DNA of 64,000 nt from an uncultured Actinomycetes bacterium. Lineage in GTDB: Bacteria > Actinomycetota > UBA4738 > HRBIN12. Both the position numbers and the translations under genes were made by a program. Below are positions 2,738-63,527 of this stretch, piece by piece. The stretch's first letter is position 1, and each line of letters opens with the position of its first letter. The notes under the pieces were generated by a model. The model was not told the origin of the DNA. It saw only the letters and a list, made by a program, of their open reading frames with translations, and did no database searches. The DNA is taken from NCBI GenBank assembly GCA_963792215.1, contig CAWBVL010000007.1, positions 325,044-389,043 of the forward strand, written 5' to 3'.

Positions 2738-3917
2738 CTTCGATGTCCTGCGTTGCGGTGGCCGCGGCGAGCGCCTCGGCCCAGATCTGCTTGACCGGTC
2801 GGCCGGTCACCGCGGCGACCGCGGCGCAGTCGTCGTGCTCTGGCGCGACGTTCACGACCCGGCCGTCGAGCAGACCGATCTTGACGCGGACGGTGTGGCC
2901 GTCGATGTCGACCTCGCGCATCGCGCGGTCGAGCTCGTAGCGCTCGAGCCGTTGCACCCGCACCCCCAGCGTCGACGAGTTCGTGAGAAGCGTCTCGGCG
3001 AGCGTCCGCTCCTGATCCGGCCTGGCGAGGACACTGAGCAGCACACCCGGGCGGGCTTTCTTCATCTGGATCGGGACGGTCCACGCGTCGATCGCACCCG
3101 CGGTCATGCAGGCGTCGAGCACGTCGGGCACGAGCTCCGGAACGAGGTCGTCGACGTTTGCCTGAAGCAGGACCACGGCCGTGGTGGTCTGCGGCTCGTC
3201 GATCGCGTCGCCGATCGCGACCCGAACGATGTTGGGTCGAGAGGGGTGTTCGCGGGTTCCGACGCCGGTGCCGGTCGCGCGCAGCACCATCGCGGGGAGC
3301 TCGCCCCACGCATCGGCTGCCGTGACCACGATCGCCGCGCCCGTAGGCGTAACGAGCTCGCCGGGCGTGTCGACGCCGACCACCGGAACGCCGGCCAGCA
3401 GCGCCATCGTCGCCGGCGCCGGAAGCGGCATCACGCCGTGATCCATCTGGCCGATCCCACGGCCGAGCGGGACGGGCGCGCAGACGAGCCGTTCGATCTC
3501 GAGCGCGTCGAGCAGCGCGAAGACGCCGCAGATGTCGATCAGGGTGTCGTCGTCACCGAGCTCGTGCAGCACGACCTCGTTCCGATCGACACCGTGGACC
3601 GCGGCCTCGGCTCCGATCAGGCGATCGAGCGCATCGAGGGAACGCGAGCGGACACGTGGCGCCAACCGCGAGCCCGCGATGACCGCGCGCATCGCCTCGC
3701 CGGTGCGCCCGTGAGGCTCGGCCGACCGGACGTCCACATGCGTCGCGCGAAGGCGGGCGCGCACCGGTTGTGAGACGTCGAGACCGACGCCGTCGAGGCC
3801 GAGCGCGGCGATCGCCTCGTCGAGCGCGGACCGCGGTGCGCCCGCGTCCAACAGCGCGGCGAGCAGCATGTCGCCCGCCAGGCCGCCGACGGGGTCGACG
3901 TGGGCGACGCGGGTCAC
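2721..3917 (-). CDS. larC: LarC, nickel insertion protein (DUF111 family), single unsplit ORF
   Basis: N-terminus VAHVDPVGGLAGDMLLAALLDAG is typical of LarC. About 398 aa. Overlaps both larE and larB. Confidence 0.85.
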   Translation of the reverse strand: MTRVAHVDPVGGLAGDMLLAALLDAGAPRSALDEAIAALGLDGVGLDVSQPVRARLRATHVDVRSAEPHGRTGEAMRAVIAGSRLAPRVRSRSLDALDRLIGAEAAVHGVDRNEVVLHELGDDDTLIDICGVFALLDALEIERLVCAPVPLGRGIGQMDHGVMPLPAPATMALLAGVPVVGVDTPGELVTPTGAAIVVTAADAWGELPAMVLRATGTGVGTREHPSRPNIVRVAIGDAIDEPQTTTAVVLLQANVDDLVPELVPDVLDACMTAGAIDAWTVPIQMKKARPGVLLSVLARPDQERTLAETLLTNSSTLGVRVQRLERYELDRAMREVDIDGHTVRVKIGLLDGRVVNVAPEHDDCAAVAAVTGRPVKQIWAEALAAATATQDIEDAHAR

Positions 3918-4681
3918 GGCGCGCGCACCTCAGCGCGGCGTGCGATCCGGGCGGCGACCGATCCTGCGCCGAGGCCGTCGTCGATCCCGACCACCGCGAG
4001 CCCATCCGCACACGAGACGAGCATCGCGTTGAGCGCTGTCTCGCCTCCGTGCGCCGAGCCGTAGCCCACGCTGGTCGGCACGCCGATCACGGGACACGGC
4101 GCCAGCCCGCCGATCACGCTGGCGAGCGCGCCGTCCATCCCGGCGACCACCACGACGACGTCCGCGCGATCGAGGTCCGGGATCACCGGCGCGAGGCGAT
4201 GCAGCCCCGCGACGCCAACGTCCTCGTGCACGGTGACGTTGGTGCCGAGCAGGTCGGCGCGGATCCGTGCCTCGTGCACGACCGGACCGTCGGACGTCCC
4301 CGCGGAGACGATCAAGACCTGCCCGCGCTTCTCGATCGGCTCGCGCTCGGCCCACACGGCGCGCGCACGTTCGTCTTCGAGCGCCTCGGGAAGGACCTCT
4401 CGCACCGCCGCTCGCATCGGCTCGTCGGCGCGCGTGACGAGCACGCTGGACGCGCCCGCCTCGGCGAGCGCCAACGCGATCCGCGCGACCTGATCCGGCG
4501 TCTTGCCCGATCCGAGGACCACCTCGGGGGCGCCCTGCCGGAGCTCGCGATGGGTATCCACCCGCGCGAAGCCGAGGTCCCGGTACGGCAACTGTGCGAG
4601 CCGGTCTGCCGCATCCTTCGGATCGACGCCATGGTCGGCGACGGCCTCGAGGAGTTCCTCCAGCTGGCGGCGCGAGGTCAT
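3914..4681 (-). CDS. larB: LarB, nicotinic acid adenine dinucleotide carboxylase/hydrolase (PurE-like)
   Basis: PurE/AIR-carboxylase-like core (LIVSAGTSDGPVVHEA...VVVAGMDGALASVIGG). I chose ATG at 4681 (MTSRRQLEEL). Confidence 0.85.
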   Translation of the reverse strand: MTSRRQLEELLEAVADHGVDPKDAADRLAQLPYRDLGFARVDTHRELRQGAPEVVLGSGKTPDQVARIALALAEAGASSVLVTRADEPMRAAVREVLPEALEDERARAVWAEREPIEKRGQVLIVSAGTSDGPVVHEARIRADLLGTNVTVHEDVGVAGLHRLAPVIPDLDRADVVVVVAGMDGALASVIGGLAPCPVIGVPTSVGYGSAHGGETALNAMLVSCADGLAVVGIDDGLGAGSVAARIARRAEVRAP

Positions 4682-4718
4682 GCGGTCGAGTCTACGCCGC
4701 AGGCGGCATCGGCTTCCC

Positions 4719-5084
4719 TTACGGCAGATCGACGACGGCGCGCGCTCGAGCTTGCAAGGCAAGCGAACCCGGGACGAGCAACAACCCCGAGAACGTTCTG
4801 CGCACCGTCACGACCGCTTCCGTGGCGCCGGTCGCGCACGAACAATCCACCAGCTCGGTGCCGTTGTCTTCCGCGAACCGCGTCGCATCCGCGGTGGGAT
4901 CCCCGCTTCCGAGCGCAAGGTCCTGCGCAGCGGCGAGGGCGGCCGCGTCCGCCGCCGCCTCGGCGTGCGACCGTTCCACCAGGACTCGACCGACGTCCGC
5001 CACGCCCATCGTGCAGACGAGGGCGATGCAGATCGCGGCGGCGCACACGACCGATACCGACCCCCGCTGCGAGGTCCCGCTCAC
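4719..5084 (-). CDS. TadE-like pilus minor protein (Rv3654c family)
   Basis: N-terminal hydrophobic segment GSVSVVCAAAICIALVC. Last gene of the Tad operon. Confidence 0.65.
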   Translation of the reverse strand: MSGTSQRGSVSVVCAAAICIALVCTMGVADVGRVLVERSHAEAAADAAALAAAQDLALGSGDPTADATRFAEDNGTELVDCSCATGATEAVVTVRRTFSGLLLVPGSLALQARARAVVDLP

Positions 5085-10028: not shown

Positions 10029-10250
10029 CCCCGTCCCTTCTTCACCGAACGCGCGCCGAAGCGCCGCGTTGCCGCTCGAGGAAGCTTCAGGGGGTGGCCG
10101 GTGCAGGAATGCGCGCCGACGGAACGAACGCTACCGGCGTGACGGTGCGCTGTTGATCCCCAGACCGACCCATCTCGCGTTCTTGTCGGGGGATGTGCGC
10201 GTGCGCTCCGTCACAGCCGACGGCGCGGTGGTTCGAGGGTCGCCGGAGGG

Positions 10251-10502
10251 CTAGTCCGAGTCGTGCCAGCGCTTCGACAACTCCGACTGCTCGAGACGAT
10301 GCGACCACTGCATCAAGACGGTCACGATCGTCGCGCCGAAGGTCGCGAGGGCGAACCCACCGGTGAAGGCCACCACACCGATCAGGTCGGGCGACGGCGT
10401 GATCTGGTCGCTGACCTGCCACTGCAGGATCGTCCTGAGCACGACCCAGACGAACGCCGACACGATGAACGCGCCACCGAACCGCTGTGCCCACGTATCC
10501 AT
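10251..10502 (-). CDS. Small two-TM membrane protein, unknown function
   Basis: ATG at 10502 lies 6 nt after GGAGG. Two hydrophobic helices. Confidence 0.5.
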   Translation of the reverse strand: MDTWAQRFGGAFIVSAFVWVVLRTILQWQVSDQITPSPDLIGVVAFTGGFALATFGATIVTVLMQWSHRLEQSELSKRWHDSD

Positions 10503-10628
10503 CGAGCCCCTCCGGACGCCGGCCGAGGTACGAACCGTACCGACCGGTCGCGATCGATACCACGACCCGCAACGCGCTGCGGCCCGGGGCCAAGCCCCGG
10601 GCCGCAGGTGGTACAACGTGGCGCTTAG

Positions 10629-12278
10629 CTAGGTGGTCTTCATGACCCCCTTCACGACATCCACCTTCGCACTGTCGCCGGCCGACCGAGCGATAAGCTT
10701 GAGCGAGCGCGATGCTCCATGGTGCGTCGTCTTGTTCGCCGAGATGGTGATCACGACGGTCCGCTGGCCGCCGGCCGGCACCGTCACCCAGTACGTTCCC
10801 GACGCGACGGTGGTCTTGATGCTATGGCCACCGGTCGCGTAGCTGATCGAGAAGCCGCCTCCAGAGGCGGACCCTCTCAGGAAGAACGAGTCGGTAACGT
10901 GGGCGTCGTTCTGCAGGTGGACGAAGAGGTGCTTCGTCCCGCCGGGCGCCATCTTGACGGTCCTGGCCTGGTTTGCCCCGGACATGTTGTAGATGCCATT
11001 GCCCGCGTAGCCGGCGCTCGCGTGCTTCGAGATCAGCAGGTCGGGCCGGTACTTAGGCGGGCTCCCTCCCGTCAGCGATTGCACCGTGATCGGGATGTGC
11101 CGATCGGTCTTGGTGCCGTCGCCGAGCTGCCCCCCGGTGCTGTCGATCGGCGCGAGGTTGTGCACACCGTGGTTCGCACCGAAGCACTTCACCGCGCCGG
11201 CGGTGGTCACCAGACAGGTCATGCCCGTCTTCTGGTAGCCACCGGCCGAGATCTGTTTGACGCCGGAGCCCGACCGGTACACGTGCACGGGCGAGCTACT
11301 GGCCTTGGTCTTCCCGTTCCCCAGCTCGCCGGATTCGTTCGCACCCCAGCACATAGCCGCACCGCCGGTCGTGACCGCGCAGGTGTGATTGAAGCCTGCG
11401 GAGATCGACTTCGCCGAAAGGCCGGTCACCGTCACCGGGTGGGTGCTGTCAATGGTCGTCCCATTACCGAGCTCGCCCGTGGTGTTGTTCCCCCAGCACT
11501 TCACCGCGCCGCCGGTCAACAGGGCGCAGGTGTGATCGAACCCGGCCGAGACGGCGGTCGCAGTGCCGCCGAGGCCGGTGACGTCGGTCGGGACCAGTCT
11601 GTCGCTCTTGGCGCCATCGCCGATCTCGCCGTGCTTCCCCTGGCCCCAGCACTTGACGCCACCGCCGGTCGTGACAGCACACGTGTGGTCCCAGCCGGCC
11701 GAGATCTGCGTGATGCCGCTCAGCCCGGTGTCAACCGGCGTCCGATGCGATTGCCTATCGCCGGTGCCGAGCTGTCCGTTGCCGTTATATCCCCAACACC
11801 AGACCGTGCCCGCGTTCTTGAGCGCGCAGCCGGAGTCGAAACCGAGGGAAACCTGCGCAACGCCGCTGGTCAGACCAACAACCTGGACAGGCGTCACCCG
11901 CTTGATCAGCGACCCGTCGCCGAGCTCGCCGTCGCCGTTGTGACCCCAGCACTTCACGGCGCCGCCGGTCGTCACGGCGCAGGAGTGATCCCAGACCGCC
12001 TGCACGTCCTTCACGCCAGCCTTCAGGCCCTTCACCGTGGTCGGCTTGAGCCGGTCGATCTTGGTGCCGTCGCCGACCATGCCGACGGCGTTGAAGCCCC
12101 AGCATCTCGCGACACCCGCCGTCGTGCGCACGCACGCGTGCACCGCTCCGGCAGAGACCGAGGAAACGTTGGTGGCTTGCGCGGCAGGCGCCGCGAAAAC
12201 AAGTGCGCCGGCTACCAAGCCGACGGCGGTGATGATGCGGGTCGTATGTGACCCGATCCGGGGGGTGGTGTGACGCAT
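10629..12278 (-). CDS. Secreted RCC1-repeat (7-blade beta-propeller) protein with C-terminal beta-sandwich-like domain
   Basis: Signal peptide ending AAQA. Seven C[WF]G[FHYQNA]N.G.LG repeats. ATG at 12278 follows GGAGGA. Confidence 0.8.
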   Translation of the reverse strand: MRHTTPRIGSHTTRIITAVGLVAGALVFAAPAAQATNVSSVSAGAVHACVRTTAGVARCWGFNAVGMVGDGTKIDRLKPTTVKGLKAGVKDVQAVWDHSCAVTTGGAVKCWGHNGDGELGDGSLIKRVTPVQVVGLTSGVAQVSLGFDSGCALKNAGTVWCWGYNGNGQLGTGDRQSHRTPVDTGLSGITQISAGWDHTCAVTTGGGVKCWGQGKHGEIGDGAKSDRLVPTDVTGLGGTATAVSAGFDHTCALLTGGAVKCWGNNTTGELGNGTTIDSTHPVTVTGLSAKSISAGFNHTCAVTTGGAAMCWGANESGELGNGKTKASSSPVHVYRSGSGVKQISAGGYQKTGMTCLVTTAGAVKCFGANHGVHNLAPIDSTGGQLGDGTKTDRHIPITVQSLTGGSPPKYRPDLLISKHASAGYAGNGIYNMSGANQARTVKMAPGGTKHLFVHLQNDAHVTDSFFLRGSASGGGFSISYATGGHSIKTTVASGTYWVTVPAGGQRTVVITISANKTTHHGASRSLKLIARSAGDSAKVDVVKGVMKTT

Positions 12279-17845: not shown

Positions 17846-17938
17846 GGAGGCGTCAGGGTTCCTGGTGGGCCTCGCGGTCTTCAAAACCGTTGAGGGGGCG
17901 ACGAGCTCCCTGGCGGGTTCGATTCCCGTCCGCCTCCG
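17846..17938 (+). tRNA. selC: tRNA-Sec (anticodon UCA)
   Basis: Hand-folded. Acceptor GGAGGCG/CGCCTCC, 6-bp D stem, anticodon loop CTTCAAA (TCA at 17881-17883). Long variable arm (7-bp stem, 5-nt loop), T loop TTCGATT, discriminator G. CCA is not encoded. Confidence 0.85.
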
Positions 17939-17999
17939 CTCTCGCGTGGTCCGCTCCAGGGGCTGCGCGCTCGCCTGGAACGACCTACGCTTCGGGCCG

Positions 18000-52520: not shown

Positions 52521-53855
52521 TCAGTCCTCCATCGCGGCGTCGGCGATCGCGAGCGAGTGGTCGATGATCTCGAAGCCGTCGGCGAGCTGCTCCTCGGTGA
52601 TGCACAGCGGCGGGTTGGTCATCACGTTCCACCACCGGATGAACGTCGCGAGACCGTTGTCGAGCAGCGATCGGTTGAGCGCCTGCATGGTCTCGTTCAT
52701 CGAGTTGAACGGCGACAGCGGCTCCATCGTCTCGCGGTTCTTGACCAGCTCGATGATGCCGAACAGGCCGATGTTGCGGACGCGGCCGACGCTCGGGTGC
52801 TTGGCGGCGAGTTCCTCGTGGTGGCGCGCCATCACCGGCTCGAGGCGCTTCGCGTTGCCGACCAGGTCGTCCTGCTCGATCACGTCGATCGCGGCGATCG
52901 CGGCGGCAACGCCGAGCGGGTGCGTGTTGTACGTGAGACCGCCCCAGAACATGTGGTCGTCGAAGTAGTCGGCGATGTGCGGCGCGAGCGCGACGGCCCC
53001 GAGCGGCGCGTAGGAGGAGGTGAGCCCCTTCGCCGTGGTGAGCAGGTCGGGCACCACGCCCCAGTTGTCGACCGCGAACCACGCGCCGGTCCGGCCCCAG
53101 CCGCACATCACTTCGTCGGCGATCATCTGGATGCCGTAGTGGGTGCAGAGCTCGCGGACGCCCTGGAGGTAGCCGTCCGGCGGGATCAAGATCCCGTTCG
53201 TTCCGGTGACCGGCTCGAGGATGAACGCCGCGATCGTCTCGGGGCCCTCGAGCTCGATCGTCTCTTCCAACAGCGCGAGCGCGGTGTCGGCTTCTTCGAA
53301 CCCGCGCTTCGTGCCGTGGTACGGATCGAGCACATGCACGACGCCGGGCATCGGGGGCGCCTCGTTCGGCCACCGGCGTGGGTCGCCGGTGAGCGCCATC
53401 GTCGCGTAGGTCGAGCCGTGGTAGCTGCGGTACCGCGCGAGGATCTTCTGCCGGCCGGTGAACGCCTTGGCCATCTTCACCGCGTTCTCGTTCGCCTCCG
53501 CGCCGGCCAGCGTGAAGAAGGTCTTCTCGAGGTCGCCGGGCCACAGGCCGGCGAGCCGCTTGCCGAGCACCGCGCGGCCCTCGAAGGCGTGGAACGGCGA
53601 GATGTACGGCAGCTTCTCCGCTTGGCGGGCGATCGCCTCGGTCACGCGCTTGTCGCCGTGGCCGATGTTCACGCCCATCAGCTGCGAGCTGAAGTCGAGC
53701 CACCGGCGGCCGTCGACGCCATACATGTAGACGCCCTCGGCGCGGTCGATCGCGAGCGGCGACGCCTTGGACTGGATGTGCCAGTCGTAGAGCGTGTACC
53801 GCGTCGCGTCCGCGATGATCTGTTCGGCCGTCATAGCGCCGGTCTCGGTGCTCAT
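52521..53855 (-). CDS. Class III (omega) PLP aminotransferase
   Basis: LAGAEANE, ILEPV, ADEVMCGWGRTG, TTAKGLTS (PLP-Lys). ATGA overlap with the upstream ATPase gene. Confidence 0.85.
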   Translation of the reverse strand: MSTETGAMTAEQIIADATRYTLYDWHIQSKASPLAIDRAEGVYMYGVDGRRWLDFSSQLMGVNIGHGDKRVTEAIARQAEKLPYISPFHAFEGRAVLGKRLAGLWPGDLEKTFFTLAGAEANENAVKMAKAFTGRQKILARYRSYHGSTYATMALTGDPRRWPNEAPPMPGVVHVLDPYHGTKRGFEEADTALALLEETIELEGPETIAAFILEPVTGTNGILIPPDGYLQGVRELCTHYGIQMIADEVMCGWGRTGAWFAVDNWGVVPDLLTTAKGLTSSYAPLGAVALAPHIADYFDDHMFWGGLTYNTHPLGVAAAIAAIDVIEQDDLVGNAKRLEPVMARHHEELAAKHPSVGRVRNIGLFGIIELVKNRETMEPLSPFNSMNETMQALNRSLLDNGLATFIRWWNVMTNPPLCITEEQLADGFEIIDHSLAIADAAMED

Positions 53856-55030
53856 GCCTGCCCCTCTCCTGCGTCGTCGCCCTCGTCCGTCGCCGGCGCG
53901 GGACCCGACCCGACGATGTAGCTGTGCTCGGCCGCCCAGCGGAGCATCACGCTCTCGCCCGGATGCGGATCGACCGCGCCGACCTCGTCGTTCAGGCGAT
54001 GGACGGTGAGGCGCTCGCCGGTGCGCAGCAACACGATCAGCTGCGTGATCGACCCGAGATACACGACGTCGATCACCGTGCCGCCCACGTACGAGGCGCG
54101 GTCTTCGGCCGTGCCGTTCGCGAGCTTGATCCACTCCGGCCTGACGGTGATCTGCGCCCGCCCGTCGTCGTGACCCGACCCGGGATCGACCGCGAGGATG
54201 CGCTGTCCGTCGCCGAGATCCATCGCGAGCAGGCCGGCGTCAGTCCGGTCGACCCGCAGGTCGATCAGGTTCGACGTGCCGATGAACCCCGCGACGAAGG
54301 CGCTTGCCGGTCGCTGATACAGCTCGCGCGGCGTCGCCAGCTGCTCGACGACCCCCAGGTTCATCACCGCGATGCGATCGCTCATCGTCATCGCCTCCTC
54401 CTGGTCGTGCGTCACGTAGACGAACGTCGTCTCGGTGCGCTGCTGAAGCTCCTTCAGCTCGAGCTGCATCTCCTTTCGGAGCTTCAGGTCCAGGGCGCCG
54501 AGGGGTTCGTCGAGGAGCAGCGCCGCGGGACGGTTGATCAACGCCCGCGCGAGCGCGACCCGCTGTTGCTGCCCGCCGGACAGCTGCGTGGGCCGCCGGT
54601 CCTCAAGGCCGTCGAGCCGCACCGTGTGGATCACGTCGGTCATCCGCTCGGTGATGTCGGACTTCGAGAGCTTCTTGATCTTCGGGCCGAACGCGATGTT
54701 CTCCGCGACCGTCATGTGCGGGAACAGCCCGTAGGCCTGGAAGACCATGTTCACGTTGCGCTTCGCGGGCGGGACCGACGTGACGTCGCGGCCCTGCAGC
54801 ACGATCCGGCCCTCGTCCGGCATCTCGAAGCCCGCGATCATCCGCAGCGTCGTCGTCTTGCCACAGCCGCTCGGACCGAGCATCGAGAAGAACTCGCCGC
54901 CCGGGATCTGGATCGAGACGGCGTCGACCGCGGTGACGTCGTCGAAGTGCTTCGTGACGGCGTCGACGAAGATCTCGCCTTCGTGGCTCGTCGCGGTGGG
55001 CTCGGTGTCCGTGTCGGATGTCGCGCTCAT
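53852..55030 (-). CDS. PotA-like polyamine/amine ABC transporter ATP-binding protein
   Basis: GPSGCGKTT, LSGGQQQRVALARAL, LLLDEPLGALD. ATGA overlap with the permease gene. Confidence 0.85.
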   Translation of the reverse strand: MSATSDTDTEPTATSHEGEIFVDAVTKHFDDVTAVDAVSIQIPGGEFFSMLGPSGCGKTTTLRMIAGFEMPDEGRIVLQGRDVTSVPPAKRNVNMVFQAYGLFPHMTVAENIAFGPKIKKLSKSDITERMTDVIHTVRLDGLEDRRPTQLSGGQQQRVALARALINRPAALLLDEPLGALDLKLRKEMQLELKELQQRTETTFVYVTHDQEEAMTMSDRIAVMNLGVVEQLATPRELYQRPASAFVAGFIGTSNLIDLRVDRTDAGLLAMDLGDGQRILAVDPGSGHDDGRAQITVRPEWIKLANGTAEDRASYVGGTVIDVVYLGSITQLIVLLRTGERLTVHRLNDEVGAVDPHPGESVMLRWAAEHSYIVGSGPAPATDEGDDAGEGQA

Positions 55031-55905
55031 GTCTGGATCCTGTTCAGTCGGGCGAGCTTGTACGCCAGCAGGGAGAAGACGATCGACACGACCAGCATCA
55101 CGAGGTTCAGCGCCGAGCCGGCGCCCCAGTCGCCCGACCCGAGGATCAGGTCGCGAACGCGCTGGCCCATCATGTAGCTGCCCGTACCGCCGACGATGTC
55201 GGCGGTGACGAAGTCGGTGAGCATCGGGATGTAGACGAGGATCATCGCGATGAAGATGCCGGGCGCCGCGAGCGGGATCAGCAGGCGCTTGGACTGCACC
55301 CACCACCCGGCGCCGAGGTCGACGGCCGACTCGAACATCGACGCGTCGATCGCCTTCATCGCGGCATAGATGGGGATCGTCGTATACGTGATGTAGCTCG
55401 CGGCGAGCGTCACGATCACCGCGAACGGACTGAAGAGCAGCCACGTGATCGGCGGCCCAGGGATCATCCAGTTGACGATGCCGTTGCGGCCGAGGATCAC
55501 CTGCCAGGCGTAGATCTTGACGACGGGCGCGAGCTCGTCGGCGAGGACCAACGACAACAGCAGGAACAGCTCCCACCGCCCCGCTCGGAACACCATGTAG
55601 TACGCGAGCGGGATCCCGATCGCGAGCATGATGATCATCGCGGTCGTGCTCATCCACAGCGTCGTCCAGGCGATCTTCCAGTTGAGCGGGTCCGTCAGGA
55701 CGTCGGTGTAGTGCGAGAGCGTCCGGCCGCTCGAGGTGTTCGGCGGGAACTTCAGGATGCTCATGAACGCCATGATCACCATCGGTCCGAGGAACAGGAC
55801 GATCAGCAGGGTGACCGGCGCGAACAGGATCCCGAACGCGCCGCGCCCGCTCCCTTTTCGCCGTGAAGGCTTGGCCGGCGCGATCGCGACGTCTGCCGTG
55901 GCCAT
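55027..55905 (-). CDS. ABC transporter permease (PotB/PotC type)
   Basis: Six hydrophobic helices and the EAA-like loop MFESAVDLGAGWWVQSKRLLIPLAAP. Confidence 0.8.
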   Translation of the reverse strand: MATADVAIAPAKPSRRKGSGRGAFGILFAPVTLLIVLFLGPMVIMAFMSILKFPPNTSSGRTLSHYTDVLTDPLNWKIAWTTLWMSTTAMIIMLAIGIPLAYYMVFRAGRWELFLLLSLVLADELAPVVKIYAWQVILGRNGIVNWMIPGPPITWLLFSPFAVIVTLAASYITYTTIPIYAAMKAIDASMFESAVDLGAGWWVQSKRLLIPLAAPGIFIAMILVYIPMLTDFVTADIVGGTGSYMMGQRVRDLILGSGDWGAGSALNLVMLVVSIVFSLLAYKLARLNRIQT

Positions 55906-56823
55906 CTAGGTCTCGGCCGACGCGACCACGGCCTCACCTCCCGCGATGATGCCGCGTGTGGCGTCCTCGCCGCTGCGCGCCCGGAGGAACAACAGCGCGA
56001 CCGTGAGCAGGACCACCTGGATGATCGAGATCACCGTCGAGATCGCGTTGACGATCGCGGTGTGATCCGGGTTGCGGACGCTCGAGTAGACCCAGACGGG
56101 GAACGTCTGCTGGAAGCCGAGCGTGAACGCGCTGATCTCGTAGTTGTTGAACGACCAGGTGAACGCGAAGATCGCGCTCGCCGCCAACGCGGGCGCGATG
56201 TGGGGCAGGATGATGTAGCGGAGCACCTGCATCCGCGAGCAGCCGAGGTCGATCGCAGCCTCCTCCTGCACACGCTGGAACCGAAAGAGCTGCGCGCCGA
56301 CGATGGCCGTCACCAGCGGGAACGTGCAGACGACCTGGGTCGCGATCACGGTGTTGAGCGACAGATCGATCTTGAACCGCACGTAGAACATCAGCGCCGC
56401 GATCCCGATGATCAACCAGGGCAGGATCAACGGGGCGCCCACCAGCCCGGCCACCGCCGGGCGCGCGCGGAACCGGAACCGGGTCAGGCCGAACGCGGTC
56501 AGCGTGCCGAGCACGAGACAGATCGGCGCGACGATGCACGCCACGACGATCGAGTTCACGAGCGCGGCGTGCAGGAGCTGGTCGTGGAACGCGTCGGTGT
56601 ACCAGTGGACCGTGACGCCCTCGAGCGGGAACGCGAGCACGTTCGAGTCGTTGATGCTGAACAGCATCAGGATCACGAGCGGGCCGAACAGCACGAGGTA
56701 GACGACGAACAGGAACGCGCGCCACGACCAGGTGACCGCGTGCGAGCGGAACCGCACCCCCGCGGTCGGCGGGATGGCGGTCACCACACGGGCGGTCGCG
56801 CGCTCCGCGACGTTGGTCGCCAT
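55906..56823 (-). CDS. ABC transporter permease (PotB/PotC type)
   Basis: EAA-like loop QEEAAIDLGCSRMQVLRYIILPHIAP. Its stop abuts the next ATG. Confidence 0.8.
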   Translation of the reverse strand: MATNVAERATARVVTAIPPTAGVRFRSHAVTWSWRAFLFVVYLVLFGPLVILMLFSINDSNVLAFPLEGVTVHWYTDAFHDQLLHAALVNSIVVACIVAPICLVLGTLTAFGLTRFRFRARPAVAGLVGAPLILPWLIIGIAALMFYVRFKIDLSLNTVIATQVVCTFPLVTAIVGAQLFRFQRVQEEAAIDLGCSRMQVLRYIILPHIAPALAASAIFAFTWSFNNYEISAFTLGFQQTFPVWVYSSVRNPDHTAIVNAISTVISIIQVVLLTVALLFLRARSGEDATRGIIAGGEAVVASAET

Positions 56824-56835
56824 GGCCTCCCGGAC

Positions 56836-57942
56836 CTAGCTCGCCTTCACTTCGGTCCAGGCCGCGACCCACGCATCACGGTTCTCCGGGGGGCTCGCGG
56901 GGATCGCGTTCTGCAGGTGGAACGGCGCGTCGAGCGAGGCCTCCTGGATCAGCTGCGGCGACGCGAGCTTGAGCGTCTTCTCGTTCGCGATCTGGTAGTT
57001 CCAATGCTGCGCTTCGTACAGCTCCGCCTCGGGGCTCGAGTAGTAGTTCAACAGCGCGTAGACCGCGTCGAGGTTCTCGGGCGCGACGTTCGGCGTCATC
57101 CCGTACCCGCAGGCCCACAGGAACTGGCCTTCCTTCGCGACCGCGAACTTCGCGTTGACGCCCTCTTGTTGCAGGGCCTTGGCGGTGTCCGGGTAGCCGG
57201 AGCTGATCACGATCTCGCCGGACTTGAACAGCGACTTCACCTCGGCGTCGCCCTTCCAGAAGGTGCGGAACTGCGACTTGTGGTCGATCAGGTACTGCTT
57301 GACCTGATCGATCTGGTCCTGGTTCATGTTGATCGGGTCTTGGATCCCGAGCGTGAGGGCGCCGATCATGAACGCGGTGACGGCGATATCCTCCATCCCG
57401 GCGCGGCCCTGCCACTGCGGATCGAAGAGGTCGGCCCACGAGGTCGGCGGGGTGGTGACGACGTCGGCGTTGTAGACGATGCCTGATGTGCCCGCGTCGA
57501 CGGGCACCATGTAGATCCCGCCGTTGTACTGCACGCCCGGCAGCTGCTGCATCGACGGGAACAGATCGTTCCAGTTCGTCAGGCGGCTCTGGTCGAGCGG
57601 GGCGTAGATCCCCTTCTCGTCCATTTGGAGGGTCGCCTCGTCGACGCAGCTGTTCACGACGTCGGCGTCGAAGCCTGCCTGGATCTTGGCGATGGCCTCT
57701 TCGTTCGATCCCATCGACGACGTCTCGAGGTGGATGTTGGGGTACTGCTGTTCGAAGGCGGCGAGGTAGCCGGGGTCGAATCCGTCGGAATAGCTCAGCA
57801 GGCGGATCGTGCCGGTGATCGACGACGGATCGACCGAGCCGTGCGGTCCCGCGCTCGGCGGCGCCGAGGACCCGCCGCCACACGCCACACCCACGAGGGC
57901 GATCGCGATCGCAGCCGCACCCGCACGGACCCACCGTCCCAT
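56836..57942 (-). CDS. PotD/PotF-type periplasmic substrate-binding lipoprotein
   Basis: Lipobox ALVGVACGGGS, 368 aa, PotD-like pattern. Confidence 0.8.
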   Translation of the reverse strand: MGRWVRAGAAAIAIALVGVACGGGSSAPPSAGPHGSVDPSSITGTIRLLSYSDGFDPGYLAAFEQQYPNIHLETSSMGSNEEAIAKIQAGFDADVVNSCVDEATLQMDEKGIYAPLDQSRLTNWNDLFPSMQQLPGVQYNGGIYMVPVDAGTSGIVYNADVVTTPPTSWADLFDPQWQGRAGMEDIAVTAFMIGALTLGIQDPINMNQDQIDQVKQYLIDHKSQFRTFWKGDAEVKSLFKSGEIVISSGYPDTAKALQQEGVNAKFAVAKEGQFLWACGYGMTPNVAPENLDAVYALLNYYSSPEAELYEAQHWNYQIANEKTLKLASPQLIQEASLDAPFHLQNAIPASPPENRDAWVAAWTEVKAS

Positions 57943-58799: not shown

Positions 58800-59258
58800 T
58801 CAGCCCTCTCCGCGGGCGCGCTTCATAGCCGCGTTGACCTCGTCCACGTCCAGGGTCATCGCGAAGAACCCGATCTCGGCCTCGTACACGGCCGGGTCGG
58901 CCTGCGCCTTCACCTCGTCCTCGAACACGTGCAGCACCGGGAGTCCCAACTGAACCCCCGCCAACGGACCCACCCAGGCCGGATCGCCGTCGCGGACCGT
59001 TTCGGCGGCCACCTCGACCGCTTCCGCGTCGGCCGCCCCGAGGATCACGACGATGCCGTCGGCACCGCACTCCTCGACGATCCGCTTGATCAACGCCTGG
59101 TTATCCGGATCCATGGCGCCCGAGGCCGTTCAGACGAAGCACTCGGTGCGCGTCTCGATCACCTCGGCGCCCGCGCTGCGCGCCACCGCGGCGATCGCCT
59201 CACCGGGAACGCTGTCACGCTCGCCGAGCGCGATCACCCATCTGCCTTCGAGCTGCAT
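58800..59258 (-). CDS. grdA: GrdA, selenoprotein A of a glycine/sarcosine/betaine-type reductase; in-frame TGA (59130-59132) read as Sec
   Basis: Joining ORFs 59130..59351 and 58800..59114 gives ...AGAEVIETRTECFV-U-TASGAMDPDNQ...AAETVRDGDPAWVGPLAGVQLGL..., matching the GrdA CFVUTAAGAMD and AGPLAGV blocks. ATG at 59258 follows GGAGGTG. Confidence 0.9.
59092..59120 (-). promoter_or_regulatory. Candidate SECIS hairpin for grdA
   Basis: Imperfect stem GGCGCC.UGGAU/AU..CCAGGCGUU with apical CCGG, starting 10 nt after the UGA. Hand-folded. Confidence 0.3.
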
Positions 59259-59661
59259 CCGTCGTCTCACCTCCTTCGGGTCGTGTTGCGTGAGTCTCCG
59301 TTGCTTGTCGCAGGTGCTCGGGGATCGGCGGGCCGACCGCCGGCGCGCCATCGAGTAGCCGCTCGATCGCTCGTTCGATCTGATCGGGCGTCGTGCCGTT
59401 GCTGGTGAGCCGCTCCACCTCGACGCCGTCGCGCATCGTCAGATACGCGGGCAACCCGGCGACGCGGAGGTCGCGGCACACCGTGCGGTTGTCGGGCGCG
59501 TTGACGGAGATGAAGCGCACGCGGTCGCCGTAGCGTTCGGCGAGCGTCTCGACCGCAGGCATCAGCGCGAGGCACGGCTGGCACTGCGGTCCCCAGATGT
59601 CGACGAGCACGTCGCCGCTGGACGCGAGCGCCTCGAACGTGTCGACGGTCGCTTCGATCAT
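59215..59661 (-). CDS. trxA: Thioredoxin with atypical CQPC active site and C-terminal extension
   Basis: VLVDIWGPQCQPCLALMP. ATG at 59661 follows GAGGAG. Its 3' end overlaps the grdA start by 44 nt. Confidence 0.8.
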   Translation of the reverse strand: MIEATVDTFEALASSGDVLVDIWGPQCQPCLALMPAVETLAERYGDRVRFISVNAPDNRTVCRDLRVAGLPAYLTMRDGVEVERLTSNGTTPDQIERAIERLLDGAPAVGPPIPEHLRQATETHATRPEGGETTDAARRQMGDRARRA

Positions 59662-59677: not shown

Positions 59678-60991
59678 TCAGGTTTCCAACGTGACGGACG
59701 CGCCATCCCACAGACGGGTAAGCCTGCCGAGGAACAGGGAGCCCTTCGCGATGAGCATGGTTCGGTGCAAGTCGCCGGCGGCCATGCGCACGAGCGCGTG
59801 CGGGAGCCAGGGGACCGCGCTCGCGATGTGCCCCTGCGTCGGCGCGAACCCGGGCATGCCGTGGTCACGCGCAAATGTCGGGATGGCGCTCTTGTCGAGC
59901 TCTCCGCGCACGACGCCGAGGCCCGCGAGCATCCGGTAGTTGCGGTTGGCAACGTCGCCGCCGCCCTGCGGCTCGGTGATCTCGGGGTTATGGATCTCGG
60001 TCGCGTAGGTGCCGACGTCGGTGATGGCGATGCCGAGCGAATCGAGCGGATCGCCGACGAGCGCCGTGAGCTGAGCCTGCGGCGCGACGCCCGCGCCCAC
60101 GGGCATCGTGCCGATCGCGTCGGCACGGACGACGGGCCCGTTCGACCCGTCGGCGGGCTCGAGCAAGATCGCGATGCCCGCGAGCACGTCCTCGAGGATC
60201 GGATAGCCGGCCGACAGCGCGCCCTCGAACTTCATGCCGAGCTTCGCGAGGGAACCGCCCGCCACGACGACCACCCGCTGCTCGATCCCAGCTTCGATCA
60301 GCGCGGCCGCCACGATGATCGCATGCACCGGAGCCGCGCAGAACGACTTGACGTCGATCGCGCTTGCCGCCGTGAGGTCGCACGACTCGGCGATCGCCTT
60401 CGCGACGTTGCCGCCGCCTCGCTGATAGCGATCGCCGACGGCTTCCTCACCGCAGCCGATCGCGTGGGTGATCGTGGCCGGATCGACGCCCGTGCGCCGG
60501 AGAAGATCGCGGAGCGCGCGCACGCCGCTGGCCTTGATGGCGAGGTTCTCGAGCAGCACGTCGGCTGCGAGCGACGGGTCAGCCTCGTGATCAGCGCGGA
60601 TCCAGCCCGCCTCGCTGTCGCGGTCGGTGAGCCGCAGCGCGCCCTCGGGCATGGCGTCGCCGTCGTCGATGAGGTCGAACTGGTCCGCTTGCCTCATGGC
60701 TTCGTAGAAGTCGGTCTGCCTGCCGATGTCACCGAACGCGCCGTCAGCGGACGCGTCCTCGACGGGCTGCTTCCACCACGGGCGCTCGCGATCCCACAGG
60801 TCCTCGGGTCGGAGGTTGCCGATCACGACCTGGTTGGGCGGATAAGCGACGGCGTCGTCGAAGGTCCGGAGCGATGTGGCGATCTCGGACCACCGGTGCG
60901 TCTCGCGGCGCGGCTTGGATCCGTAGCGCACGAGGTCGGGCACGTGATCGAGCACGAGCGATGTCGCGACGACGGCGGCGCGCGGGCTCAT
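59678..60991 (-). CDS. grdC: GrdC-like (reductase complex component C, beta subunit; thiolase/KAS-like)
   Basis: YQRGGGNVAKAIAE, KSFCAAPVHAI, HGMPGFAPTQGHIASAVP, IAKGSLFLGRLT match GrdC blocks as I recall them. ATGA overlap with the grdB stop. Only the last 437 aa of the 817-aa ORF are used. Confidence 0.8.
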   Translation of the reverse strand: MSPRAAVVATSLVLDHVPDLVRYGSKPRRETHRWSEIATSLRTFDDAVAYPPNQVVIGNLRPEDLWDRERPWWKQPVEDASADGAFGDIGRQTDFYEAMRQADQFDLIDDGDAMPEGALRLTDRDSEAGWIRADHEADPSLAADVLLENLAIKASGVRALRDLLRRTGVDPATITHAIGCGEEAVGDRYQRGGGNVAKAIAESCDLTAASAIDVKSFCAAPVHAIIVAAALIEAGIEQRVVVVAGGSLAKLGMKFEGALSAGYPILEDVLAGIAILLEPADGSNGPVVRADAIGTMPVGAGVAPQAQLTALVGDPLDSLGIAITDVGTYATEIHNPEITEPQGGGDVANRNYRMLAGLGVVRGELDKSAIPTFARDHGMPGFAPTQGHIASAVPWLPHALVRMAAGDLHRTMLIAKGSLFLGRLTRLWDGASVTLET

Positions 60992-62277
60992 CCGTCGATC
61001 TCCCACATGGTGCGAGGCGCGACGTCGGTCGCGAGCATGTCGACCGCGCGATCGAGGATGCGCACGCGGAGCGCCAGCTCGTCGCCGGCGGCGAGGGAGG
61101 GATCGCCGGTGGGGTACGTGATGGCGACGCCGCGCACGATCCGGTTCGCCCCGACCATCTGCGCGATCGTGGGGAGCGCCGTGATGAACACGGTCGGGAT
61201 CCCCATCCGCTCCAACTCCTTCGTCAGCGTTGCCCCGCAACGCGTTCCTGTGCCTCAGGTGCCGGTCAAGATGACCGCGTCGACCCCCGCGTTGCGGAGC
61301 TCGGCGCCGATCTCCTGGCCCATCCGGGTCGAAACCGCCACCGGCGTGTCGACCCCAGTCGTGGTGAAGAACTCGTCGTGGATCCGCCCGATCCGTCCCG
61401 CGGTGACGAGCGCGCGAGCGGCGTCCAACGGCACGAGACGGTCCGGGTCGCGGTTCGCCTGGGTCGTGTCGAAGCCCGCGTGGACCGAGAGGTAATCCTC
61501 GGGCGCGAGCTCGGCGCGATCGCCGATCGGATACCGCAGCCAGACGTTCGCATGGCGCGTCGGCAAGCGGTCCGGGTTCCCCTGCGGGACGCAGCCCGCT
61601 TCGGTCACGAGGGCGACGAGCGCCGTCGACGGATCGGCCAGGGGATCGGGCGGCGCAACGCGATCGGTCGGCGGCACGATCTCGGTGCGCACGTCGCCCG
61701 CGAGCTTGGCGAGCACCAGGCCGATCGCGCGCTCGGCCCCGAGCGCGCCCGAGCGCACGTTCACCCGGAGGCCCCGCGGCAGGTAACCCTCTTCGGTAGG
61801 CGAACCGACCGCCGCGCCCGACGCGAGCCTCGAGGCGAGCGAGGCGACGAGCGGCACAGCGTCGCGCATCCCGGACACGTTGGCGGTGGTGGGCACGATG
61901 TACGCGGCGCCTTCGCTCGCGAGCACACCGGGCGAGTCGGGTGTCATCGCGGCGACGACCGCGGTGCCGCGACGACCGAGCTCGCGTGCGAGGACGCCGC
62001 ACGCGTAGCCATACCGCCCCGAGCCAAACGATGGACCACAGACCACGACGTCCGCGCCGGCCTCCTCGATCCACGCGAGCAGCGTCGCGAGACAGTCGGC
62101 CTCGTGCAGCGCGAACCGGTCGTCCCCGCACGCGACCGTGAGATCGATCTTCAATCCCGCGGCGACGAACGCCCGGCCCGGGCCCTGCGGACCTTCGAGC
62201 CGCACCGGCTCATGGTCGGCGGCCTCTTCACCGCCGAGCCCGGCGAAGAACTGGTTCACGTAATGCACGACGGTCAT
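60988..62277 (-). CDS. grdB: GrdB-family selenoprotein B subunit; in-frame TGA (61255-61257) read as Sec
   Basis: N-terminus MTVVHYVNQFFAGLGGEE. Joining ORFs 61255..62439 and 60988..61215 gives AVILTGT-U-GTGTRCGATLTKELERMGIPTVFI...VGANRIV. ATGA overlap with the grdE stop. Confidence 0.85.
61227..61243 (-). promoter_or_regulatory. Candidate SECIS hairpin for grdB
   Basis: GCGUUGC-GGG-GCAACGC, a perfect 7-bp stem starting 12 nt after the UGA. Confidence 0.5.
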
Positions 62278-63527
62278 GCCGGCACCGCCGTCCACGGTCC
62301 GTCGCCCGTCTCCACACAGCTGCCCAGGTAGTGGACCATCGCGATCGCGCGCCCGGCCTCGCCGTCGCCACCACCGACGATGCGGTCCGGCGTCCACGCG
62401 GGGACGAGCTCGTCCTCGTTCCCGGTGCTGACGAGGCAATCCGCCTCGGCGACGTGATCGGTCAGGCCCCCGTTCGTTTCGCAGATCAACGCCGTCGTCG
62501 CGATGCCGCGCGACTCCAGCGCGTGCACGGTCAGCATCGTGTCCGTGTGCGAGTTGCCCGACGAGAACGTCGTGCAGATGGCACCGGCCGCGTCGAGCTC
62601 GGCCGCGAGGACCGCCGATGCCTCGGCGCCGCGCCGCTTCGCCTCAGCCGTGTCGAGATACCCGGGCGCGAGGATCAGGCCGGCGAACCGCAGCGTGTCA
62701 CCGTGTGCTCGCTCGAGCGCGCGCACGAGCGCGAGGTCTTGATAGTTGGCCGTCGTGTTGCGGACGCCCGGCCAGTCGTAGGCGCCGTTCGTCAGTCGGC
62801 CGGCGTTGAGCCAGACAGGATCGATCACCCTCGGCATCAGGTCGCGCAGATCGTCGCCGTCGAAGAACGTGTCGGTGAGCGGGCCCTCTGACGCGACCTG
62901 CAGGACCGCGCACACGGCGGGAAGGTCCGGGTCTGCATCCTCACGTACGCCGACGTGCCACACGTCGTCCGCCACCGCATCGAGCGTGGTGGCGGCGAGG
63001 GTCCGCGCGATGTCGAGCGCTGTCCGTCGGATCGCGGCGTCCGCATCCGCGATGGACGCGCCTCGCGCCGGCACACAGCGCAGCACCACGTTCGCGGTCG
63101 AGCCCCACGGGGTCCGGTCCTGACCGGGTCCCGACATATCCACGTATGACGGCGGGAACTCCTCGGGCCCGACGAGACCCGCCGCTTTCCAATCGCAGAC
63201 GGGCAGCACGGCGACGCCGGCGATCCGATGGATCCGCGCGTGCGAGGTGTCGTCCCATGTTCCGCCGAGCACGCCGGGGAAGGTCGCAGCGGGATCGTCG
63301 GCCCGGACATCGGGCACGACGGCGTCGAGCACGTTCGTGATTCGGACGCGATCGCCGGGACGGACGACCTCGACCGTGGCCTCCGCCAGTGCCGGTTCTC
63401 CGGCTCCGACCGCGAGCTGCGGTGACGCCACAAGCAACGTTGCGCCGTCCCGCCCTGTCAGGGTCCCCTCGACGACCTCGTCGATCGCGAACGCCGCGAT
63501 CTCGAGATCAGCGCGGGTATGTGACAA
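62274..63527 (-). CDS. grdE: GrdE/GrdG/GrdI-like substrate-specific proprotein of component B
   Basis: 417 aa, placed immediately upstream of and overlapping grdB. Overall Gly_reductase-family pattern (call is partly by position). TTG start, uncertain. Confidence 0.7.
   Translation of the reverse strand: MSHTRADLEIAAFAIDEVVEGTLTGRDGATLLVASPQLAVGAGEPALAEATVEVVRPGDRVRITNVLDAVVPDVRADDPAATFPGVLGGTWDDTSHARIHRIAGVAVLPVCDWKAAGLVGPEEFPPSYVDMSGPGQDRTPWGSTANVVLRCVPARGASIADADAAIRRTALDIARTLAATTLDAVADDVWHVGVREDADPDLPAVCAVLQVASEGPLTDTFFDGDDLRDLMPRVIDPVWLNAGRLTNGAYDWPGVRNTTANYQDLALVRALERAHGDTLRFAGLILAPGYLDTAEAKRRGAEASAVLAAELDAAGAICTTFSSGNSHTDTMLTVHALESRGIATTALICETNGGLTDHVAEADCLVSTGNEDELVPAWTPDRIVGGGDGEAGRAIAMVHYLGSCVETGDGPWTAVPA

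Follow-up and report, generated by a model that had tools for sequence, protein, structure and literature searches.

Does an in-frame UGA codon in a gene for a selenoprotein B-like subunit of a glycine reductase-type (Grd) enzyme direct the insertion of selenocysteine (Sec), and what does the unusual motif behind it say about the enzyme? The question is raised by a 64,000-nucleotide stretch of DNA, hereafter the window, from an uncultured Actinomycetes bacterium (GenBank assembly GCA_963792215.1, contig CAWBVL010000007.1, positions 325,044 to 389,043), which carries a grdB-like gene on its minus strand. Enzymes of this type are a textbook case of selenium use by strict anaerobes. A preliminary description of the locus had proposed that the hairpin following the UGA is a bacterial Sec insertion sequence (SECIS). 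It had further suggested that the replacement by glycine of the first cysteine in the U-x-x-C-x-x-C motif, given as typical of GrdB, GrdF and GrdH, could mark a B subunit divergent in mechanism or substrate. We put at roughly three in four the probability that the gene encodes a Sec-containing B subunit, equipped with a GrdB-type SECIS and a Sec loop altered throughout its clade, of a probably pyruvoyl-free Grd-type reductase.

On the minus strand the coding sequence reads ...ACC TGA GGC ACA GGA ACG CGT TGC GGG GCA ACG CTG..., the TGA lying at 61257-61255; the letters and coordinates first given for the UGA and for the hairpin GCGUUGC-GGG-GCAACGC are therefore right. Reading the TGA as Sec joins two called open reading frames into a single frame of 429 amino acids (62277-60988), with the Sec loop ILTGT-U341-G-T-G344-T-R-C347-G. 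The protein scores 337 bits against PF07355 (cut-off 22) and 380 bits against TIGR01918 (cut-off 65), and displays the arrangement that marks the superfamily, namely a conserved C-terminal domain behind an in-frame UGA (or Cys codon) at the conserved position of the active site. No second GrdB-family gene is present in the genome of the window.

A scan of species-representative genomes returned 386 relatives, the best 80 of which (57-94% identity) were analysed. These are metagenome-assembled genomes of soil-type Actinomycetota, some labelled Thermoleophilia or Gaiellaceae; aligned with the window they give 81 sequences, of which 77 are distinct and were used for pairing counts. TGA occupies the equivalent codon in 80/80 of the related loci, and a true cysteine codon (TGC/TGT) occupies the Sec position in four homologues. 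Database gene calls for homologues mostly stop at residue 340, that is, at the Sec codon, as though the UGA were a genuine stop in a split or decaying gene whose 89 downstream codons go untranslated. That explanation is barely credible. The downstream frame is open in 81/81 loci, with conserved amino acids and synonymous variation, the Cys-codon homologues read straight through, and the genome possesses the full Sec machinery (tRNA-Sec, selA, selB and selD) together with a second Sec gene, grdA. The comparison thus indicates that UGA 61257-61255 is decoded as selenocysteine.

Downstream of this codon, RNAfold includes the 7-bp hairpin with its 3-nt loop in the minimum-free-energy structure. 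The geometry is that of a bacterial SECIS: a stem-loop shortly 3′ of the UGA (11-nt spacer, 7-bp stem) with G in the apical loop (GGG). By itself, the hairpin is not beyond chance. Its region has a folding energy that is ordinary for 70% GC (z = -0.96), and the window, likewise of 70% GC, contains 26 perfect hairpins of the 7-bp/3-nt-loop type where Markov-1 simulations give about 14. Folding energy and the mere presence of a hairpin were therefore dropped as evidence. The hairpin is significant because it lies directly after a conserved in-frame UGA, and because of the comparative evidence.

The UGA and the hairpin are retained together in 80/80 relatives, or 81/81 sequences with the window. 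Across the alignment 97.2% of pair cells are paired, a level attained by 0/500 shuffles, and sliding the partner by 1-3 columns lowers pairing to 24-61%. Of the distinct sequences, 41 have U-A and 35 have C-G at one stem pair; another pair alternates between G-C and G-U. The former switch arises because the synonymous choice of arginine codon tracks the partner codon: wherever the arginine codon is CGU the partner is Thr ACG, and wherever it is CGC the partner is Val GUG (44 vs 35 sequences). On the protein tree the double change from U-A to C-G has at least three separate origins, in the Gaiellaceae-type clade, in locus L044 and in a clade of six tips embedded in the U-A forms. Furthermore, the four-fold codons of the spacer (+1 to +3) vary with an entropy of 1.5-1.8 bits while their residues are invariant, and the codons of the hairpin are frozen (+4 ACG 81/81, +6 UGC 81/81, the loop codon +7 GGG 76/81, +8 GCA 63/65 and +9 ACG 44/44). 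Synonymous freedom resumes at +10, the freezing being limited to the stem-loop.

Part of the hairpin encodes the conserved peptide T-R-C-G-A-T, whose codons make up the stem. This overlap, the abundance of like hairpins in the window and the unremarkable folding z-score would all be accounted for if the hairpin were a mere by-product of coding with no function in RNA. We consider this very improbable, since synonymous freezing is confined to the stem-loop and to UGA-bearing genes, the choice between CGU and CGC follows the partner base perfectly and repeatedly, and Cys-codon homologues that keep T-R-C-G already drift at these sites (UGU, ACU, GGA, UCG). Loss of the frozen sites in the Cys-codon homologues is graded: the hairpin is still present in L085, L086 has UGU at +6, L087 has ACU, GGA and UCG, and L083 (6001-7290), with its peptide changed to S-R-S-G-A-I, has no hairpin left. 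The structure is conserved, with compensatory change, and its conservation is tied to the presence of the UGA. With its alignment to a known SECIS model (see below) and the presence of tRNA-Sec, SelA, SelB and SelD, the hairpin is well supported by these comparisons as a bacterial SECIS, in agreement with the preliminary description.

An Rfam search at the gathering threshold matched nothing in the hairpin region. In E-value mode, SECIS_4 (RF01990) matched positions 61217-61254 with 22.7 bits (gathering score 38; E = 0.0037 in a 151-nt search and 0.15 in 6 kb), the alignment running gap-free over 38/38 positions from the base directly after the UGA. The consensus of the model, GGuACcUGUACUCGUUGCGGUGCAACGAUgGUuAAAGA, encodes G-T-C-T-R-C-G-A-T-M-V-K, which is the canonical GrdB peptide. 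Model and window share the CGUUGC-GGN-GCAACG stem-loop and its spacing; they differ in that the outer 2-bp helix of the model is not formed in the window, the UGU (Cys) of the spacer is replaced by GGA (Gly) and the stem in the window is extended to seven G+C-rich pairs. A stem identical to that of the window is also found in a canonical grd operon. By these likenesses, the RNA element is the standard GrdB SECIS of the family, already known and not peculiar to this gene. By analogy with systems already characterised, SelB carrying Sec-tRNASec would bind the G-rich apical loop and deliver Sec to the ribosome paused at the UGA.

The peptide encoded after the UGA is a different matter. The motif UxxCxxC has been stated for GrdB, GrdF and GrdH (PMC6778437; PMC13188914), and its cysteines are viewed in the literature as protecting Sec or contacting GrdA (PMC6778437; PMC13188914; PMC10838667). 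The motif had thus been stated correctly, and 53 of 61 homologue sequences, including the Paraclostridium sordellii GrdB cluster, have Cys at U+3. Canonical full-length homologues, retrieved by means of the C-terminal region, read TST[U]GTCTRCGATMVKEIE (TST[U]GTCTRCG). Most of this canonical sample scores as GrdB/GrdF at E < 1e-200 and at that threshold it comprises GrdB and GrdF types but no GrdH, so that retention of UxxCxxC in GrdH rests here on the literature. The window protein has the fold family (PF07355/TIGR01918), length and Sec position of canonical GrdB, GrdF and GrdH from Clostridia and relatives (TIGR01917, NF040794 and NF040795), is some 40-43% identical to GrdB and GrdF, and like them draws its SECIS stem from the T-R-C-G-A-T codons. 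In the Sec loop, however, it reads G-T-U-G-T-G-T-R-C where the canonical proteins read S-T-U-G-T-C-T-R-C, so that the first motif cysteine is replaced by glycine and the second is retained.

This substitution is a property of the clade. The motif [TS]-G-T-U-G-T-G-T-R-C-G, in which Ser(-2) and Cys(+3) have both become Gly, is present in 81/81 sequences. The codons of Gly(+3) and Gly(-2) vary while the residues are fixed; the two glycines are therefore selected at the level of the protein, not of the RNA. Drift under GC bias was considered as the source of the Cys-to-Gly change and ruled out, the residue being invariant despite its varying codon. The protein tree shows the Gly(+3) sequences as a monophyletic clade, set apart from the canonical ones by a long branch of 0.78 substitutions per site. 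Of 401 Actinomycetota genomes drawn evenly, 15 from 10 genera contain the coding pattern UGTGTRCG; the reversed control pattern gave one match, and the canonical pattern UGTCTRCG occurred in 0/401. Among 50%-identity representatives of the superfamily, U+3 is occupied by S, G or A in other groups that are uncharacterised. These homologues are short or divergent, and none of them reaches the PrdB cut-off. One Cys-form sub-lineage is also without the second cysteine (C-G-T-G-S-R-S-G). Characterised GrdB and GrdF thus have no Gly at U+3, but the residue is not unique within the superfamily.

An AlphaFold model of the grdB-like protein (mean pLDDT 89) places Sec341 in the loop between the strand 334-338 and the helix 342-357, with residue 344 on the first turn of the helix and Cys347 on the second. 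The loop between a strand and the N-terminus of a helix is the usual location of a CxxC-type redox motif. A PDB sequence search with the protein gave no match, and a Foldseek comparison of the model with the PDB returned generic alpha/beta matches only (template modelling score ≤0.26), with no close solved relative.

The partner subunit is altered as well. In the grdE-like protein, Tyr250 aligns to the pyruvoyl precursor Cys242 of canonical GrdE, with BLASTP and MAFFT in agreement; canonical ...DGAIISGN-C242-VSSCDKN... stands opposite ...AGRLTNGA-Y250-DWPGVRN... in the window. The Asn-Cys self-cleavage site of the GrdE/GrdG proprotein is thus missing from it. The Cys242 column holds Tyr in 61/64 clade members, in the context G-[AE]-Y-[DH]-W, and the GrdE-like proteins of the clade have 0 conserved cysteines over their whole length; among Cys and Ser residues only Ser326 and Ser367 are conserved. 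In a distant lineage with the Cys-form motif C-G-T-G-T-R-C-G (P0301, 34% identity) the E subunit is also without that cysteine, and two operons with the canonical motif retain SGNCVS in theirs. Replacement of the self-cleaving Cys by Tyr implies that there would be no pyruvoyl group at the canonical site, and an amine substrate would therefore not be bound as a Schiff base.

Table 1 Features of the grd-like locus; positions are those of the window unless a contig is named
Feature	Position	Strand	Details
grdE-like partner subunit	62274..63527	-	PF09338; Tyr250 codon 62780-62778
grdB-like gene, putative selenoprotein B	60988..62277	-	429 aa + stop; ATGA overlap with both adjoining genes
UGA, predicted Sec codon	61255..61257	-	in frame; residue 341 of GrdB-family protein
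Spacer GGCACAGGAAC	61244..61254	-	11 nt, UGA to stem; encodes G-T-G(+3) and the two leading bases of the Thr(+4) codon
Gly344 codon GGA	61248-61246	-	inside the spacer
Predicted SECIS hairpin	61227..61243	-	5′ arm GCGUUGC 61243-61237; loop GGG 61236-61234; 3′ arm GCAACGC 61233-61227
Cys347 codon UGC	61239-61237	-	within the 5′ arm of the hairpin
grdC, component C beta	59678..60991	-	437 aa; NF040746 504 bits (cut-off 450); 39% identical to a canonical GrdC
Thioredoxin	59215..59661	-	PF00085; active site WGPQCQPC (not WCGPC)
grdA, selenoprotein A	58800..59252	-	PF04723 186 bits; Sec UGA 59132-59130 in CFVU; 48% identical to a canonical GrdA
Co-directional neighbour genes	53852-57942 and past the right end of the window, C7:389391-393306	- (53852-57942)	absent from more distant clade members
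tRNA-Sec	17846..17939	+	anticodon UCA; ARAGORN on the genome, C7:342889-342982

The two subunits belong to an operon that encodes the remainder of a Grd complex, with GrdA (CxxU) and GrdC alongside. The order grdE-grdB-grdC-(trx)-grdA, retained in 69-77 of 80 loci, differs from the canonical trxB-trxA-E-A-B-C-D, although GrdE-like, GrdA, GrdC and thioredoxin partners are common to both. Between grdC and grdA comes the thioredoxin gene, the end of which, coding for the C-terminal tail, overlaps the start of grdA. The same gene occurs in L066 and, with the same motif (DIWGPDCQPC), in L083, and the active site in a canonical grd operon is WGPTCEPC. In L083, whose grdB-like gene is the Cys form C-G-T-G-S-R-S-G, grdA still has its UGA. 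Downstream of the UGA of the window's own grdA (59070-59132, minus strand) no Rfam SECIS model matched, and a possible fold there, CGCC.UGG...CCAGGCG, does not outdo shuffled sequences (z = 0.09).

In a canonical operon grdD directly follows grdC. GrdD (NF040747) is component C alpha, the subunit that produces acetyl phosphate. It was found neither in the genome of the window, which is 82.5% complete, nor in 40 relatives; a grdB-like gene is present in 12 of these 41 genomes, that of the window among them. The sole match to NF040747 among the 41 is weak (30.9 bits, in G003). The model also matches PlsX in 6/14 control genomes, and 40/41 of the genomes here have no PlsX-type match. One locus with the Cys form of the canonical motif (L091, 6523-12663; C-G-T-C-T-R-C-G) is arranged grdA-grdB-grdC-trxB-like-trx, with grdE on the opposite strand and no adjacent grdD; layouts without GrdD hence exist outside the Gly clade too.

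The window's genome assembly comprises 2.97 Mb in 8 contigs. Two further features of it lie outside the window. The match to selD (G000:C1:239082-240014) is broken into three pieces, the best of which contains an in-frame TGA; the gene may itself encode a selenoprotein or carry frame changes. Additionally, ARAGORN calls a tRNA at G000:C1:436679-436755 that has a four-base anticodon, gtgg, and no assigned identity.

Could the operon nevertheless encode an ordinary reductase of glycine, of sarcosine or, as the most plausible of the three, of betaine, in which Gly at U+3 is tolerated and has no bearing on substrate or mechanism? Such an enzyme would likewise have GrdA with CxxU, GrdC and a thioredoxin, and would keep the second motif cysteine; automated JGI names of close homologues are 'betaine reductase' or 'glycine reductase', and betaine reductase, too, is reported to have an unprocessed GrdI (PMC10838667). 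Against this, the grdB-like protein scores far under the equivalog cut-offs for GrdB (TIGR01917, 350 vs 602 bits), GrdF (NF040794, 374 vs 800 bits) and GrdH (NF040795, 345 vs 775 bits), and the grdE-like protein reaches only 121 bits on GrdG, with GrdI not listed. The invariance of Gly(+3) and Gly(-2) over varying codons points to selection, the want of a pyruvoyl cysteine speaks against glycine or sarcosine as substrate, and GrdD was not found. Moreover, cytochrome-oxidase assembly genes stand beside the operon in the hosts, which sets these apart from the strict anaerobes that gain energy through Grd. On balance we regard an ordinary reductase as unlikely. A divergent B subunit, as first suggested for this gene, is supported as far as sequence goes by the invariant Gly(+3) of a monophyletic clade, the missed equivalog cut-offs and the partner without a pyruvoyl cysteine.

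The closest published precedent for the pair is the fluoroacetate reductase of Cloacibacillus (Synergistota), in which FarB is without CxxC and FarE, like GrdI, is without processing cysteines (PMC10838667). There, the E subunit without pyruvoyl cysteines has been taken to mean that the substrate needs no Schiff base (PMC10838667). The likeness to the window is that of a Grd protein-B homologue pair, a selenoprotein with loss of CxxC beside an E subunit without pyruvoyl cysteines. The differences are that the window's GrdE-like protein scores 49.8 bits on the FarE model NF053623 (cut-off 675), that only the first cysteine is lost in the window protein, and that phylum and habitat differ; moreover, neither the oxalate/formate-type antiporter nor the radical-SAM gene of the far operon was seen among the annotated neighbours in the window. 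By these comparisons, the proteins of the window are not orthologues of the Far pair. The novelty of the first-cysteine loss is nonetheless to be qualified, since FarB and the uncharacterised subfamilies with S, G or A at U+3 provide partial precedent. D-proline reductase PrdB (TIGR04483) is a more distant relative, homologous over the C-terminal half that holds the Sec motif (84 bits vs a cut-off of 300). PrdB has some 240 amino acids and works with the pyruvoyl-bearing PrdA; no prd genes accompany the window's operon.

We therefore return to the reading of a Sec-containing B subunit in a probably pyruvoyl-free reductase, for which the following course may be proposed. The product of the grdB-like gene would be selenoprotein B of a Grd-type reductase encoded by the grdE-like, grdB-like, grdC, thioredoxin and grdA genes. 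Its substrate would carry its own good leaving group on the carboxymethyl carbon, for example a betaine-type quaternary ammonium or another such group, and the selenolate would attack that carbon; a betaine-type substrate is possible for this enzyme. Following the canonical scheme, the carboxymethyl group would then pass to the Sec of GrdA (CxxU) and on to GrdC, and the CQPC thioredoxin would re-reduce GrdA. Canonical glycine reductase ends with the formation of acetyl phosphate; as no GrdD was found, this last step is probably lacking here or carried out in another way.

A transporter or pathway conserved beside the operon might have hinted at the substrate, but the adjoining genes were found to differ between sub-clades. 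In the window the operon is preceded by an SDR gene and followed by a GntR/FCD regulator and a Pot-type ABC importer. The closest relatives have, co-directional with the operon, a Pot-type ABC importer, a GntR/FCD regulator, an SMP-30/gluconolactonase-like protein, a class III aminotransferase and an FAD amine-oxidase-like protein. Loci of the Gaiellaceae type have a gene for cytochrome-oxidase assembly adjoining grdA, which fits oxygen-respiring hosts; the hosts here, soil Actinomycetota with oxidase genes, are in this respect unlike those of canonical Grd systems. In one such locus (L075) a choline/ethanolamine kinase gene (3888-4988, minus strand) and a gene for a GMC oxidoreductase of the choline-dehydrogenase family (10121-12100, minus strand) flank the operon. 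This is a weak hint to choline/betaine metabolism and was not seen in the other loci examined.

Several points weigh against the preferred reading. For the RNA element these are the ordinary folding energy of the hairpin region, the SECIS_4 score below the gathering score and the entanglement of stem conservation with that of the T-R-C-G-A-T peptide. GrdD may sit in the unassembled part of an incomplete genome, although its absence from 40 relatives argues against GrdD being merely unassembled. The importer, aminotransferase and FAD oxidase stand beside the operon in some sub-clades and in none of the Gaiellaceae, and give no firm clue to the substrate. Betaine reductase is reported with UxxCxxC kept and GrdI unprocessed (for GrdI, PMC10838667), so that loss of the first cysteine and loss of the pyruvoyl site are not strictly coupled. 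Finally, we infer Sec insertion, the uncleaved state of the GrdE-like subunit and the kind of substrate from sequence. A strict coupling of Cys at U+3 with the pyruvoyl site of the E subunit was also considered as a rule for the family and rejected, betaine reductase being the reported counter-example.

A more specific proposal can be offered tentatively, and we hold it with distinctly less confidence. The operon might encode a distinct reductase that depends on selenium but not on pyruvoyl, belonging to soil Actinomycetota that respire oxygen (Thermoleophilia, Gaiellaceae and their kin). Its substrate would be neither glycine nor sarcosine nor betaine, and its glycine-rich Sec loop, G-T-U-G-T-G, would face the conserved Tyr of an uncleaved E subunit. 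Because GrdD is missing, such an enzyme would be uncoupled from acetyl-phosphate formation.

What appears to be new here is a large, unannotated clade of Grd-like selenoenzymes in Actinomycetota, with a G-T-U-G-T-G loop, an E subunit without a conserved cysteine and no GrdD found. In a literature search no paper turned up that connects glycine reductase with Thermoleophilia or deals with Grd genes in Actinomycetota. UxxCxxC serves as an annotation rule, and a copy without the motif has been called a likely pseudogene in a genome paper (PMC6778437). The present clade, with hundreds of metagenome proteins and 386 matches among species genomes, forms a large group without the first cysteine that is well conserved and clearly under selection. 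Its natural variants (U/C, C/G and C/S) could be used to probe the role of the motif cysteines, and the pairs of Sec and Cys forms provide an unusually clean natural demonstration of a SECIS shaping codon choice, and even peptide conservation, 3′ of a UGA. The variant motif, together with an E subunit seemingly incapable of forming a pyruvoyl group and the failure to find GrdD, points to a selenium-dependent reaction of common soil bacteria that is as yet unassigned. If the pyruvoyl-independent reading is true, it would add a new reaction class to those of the Grd family and give selenium a new role in soil bacteria that live aerobically.

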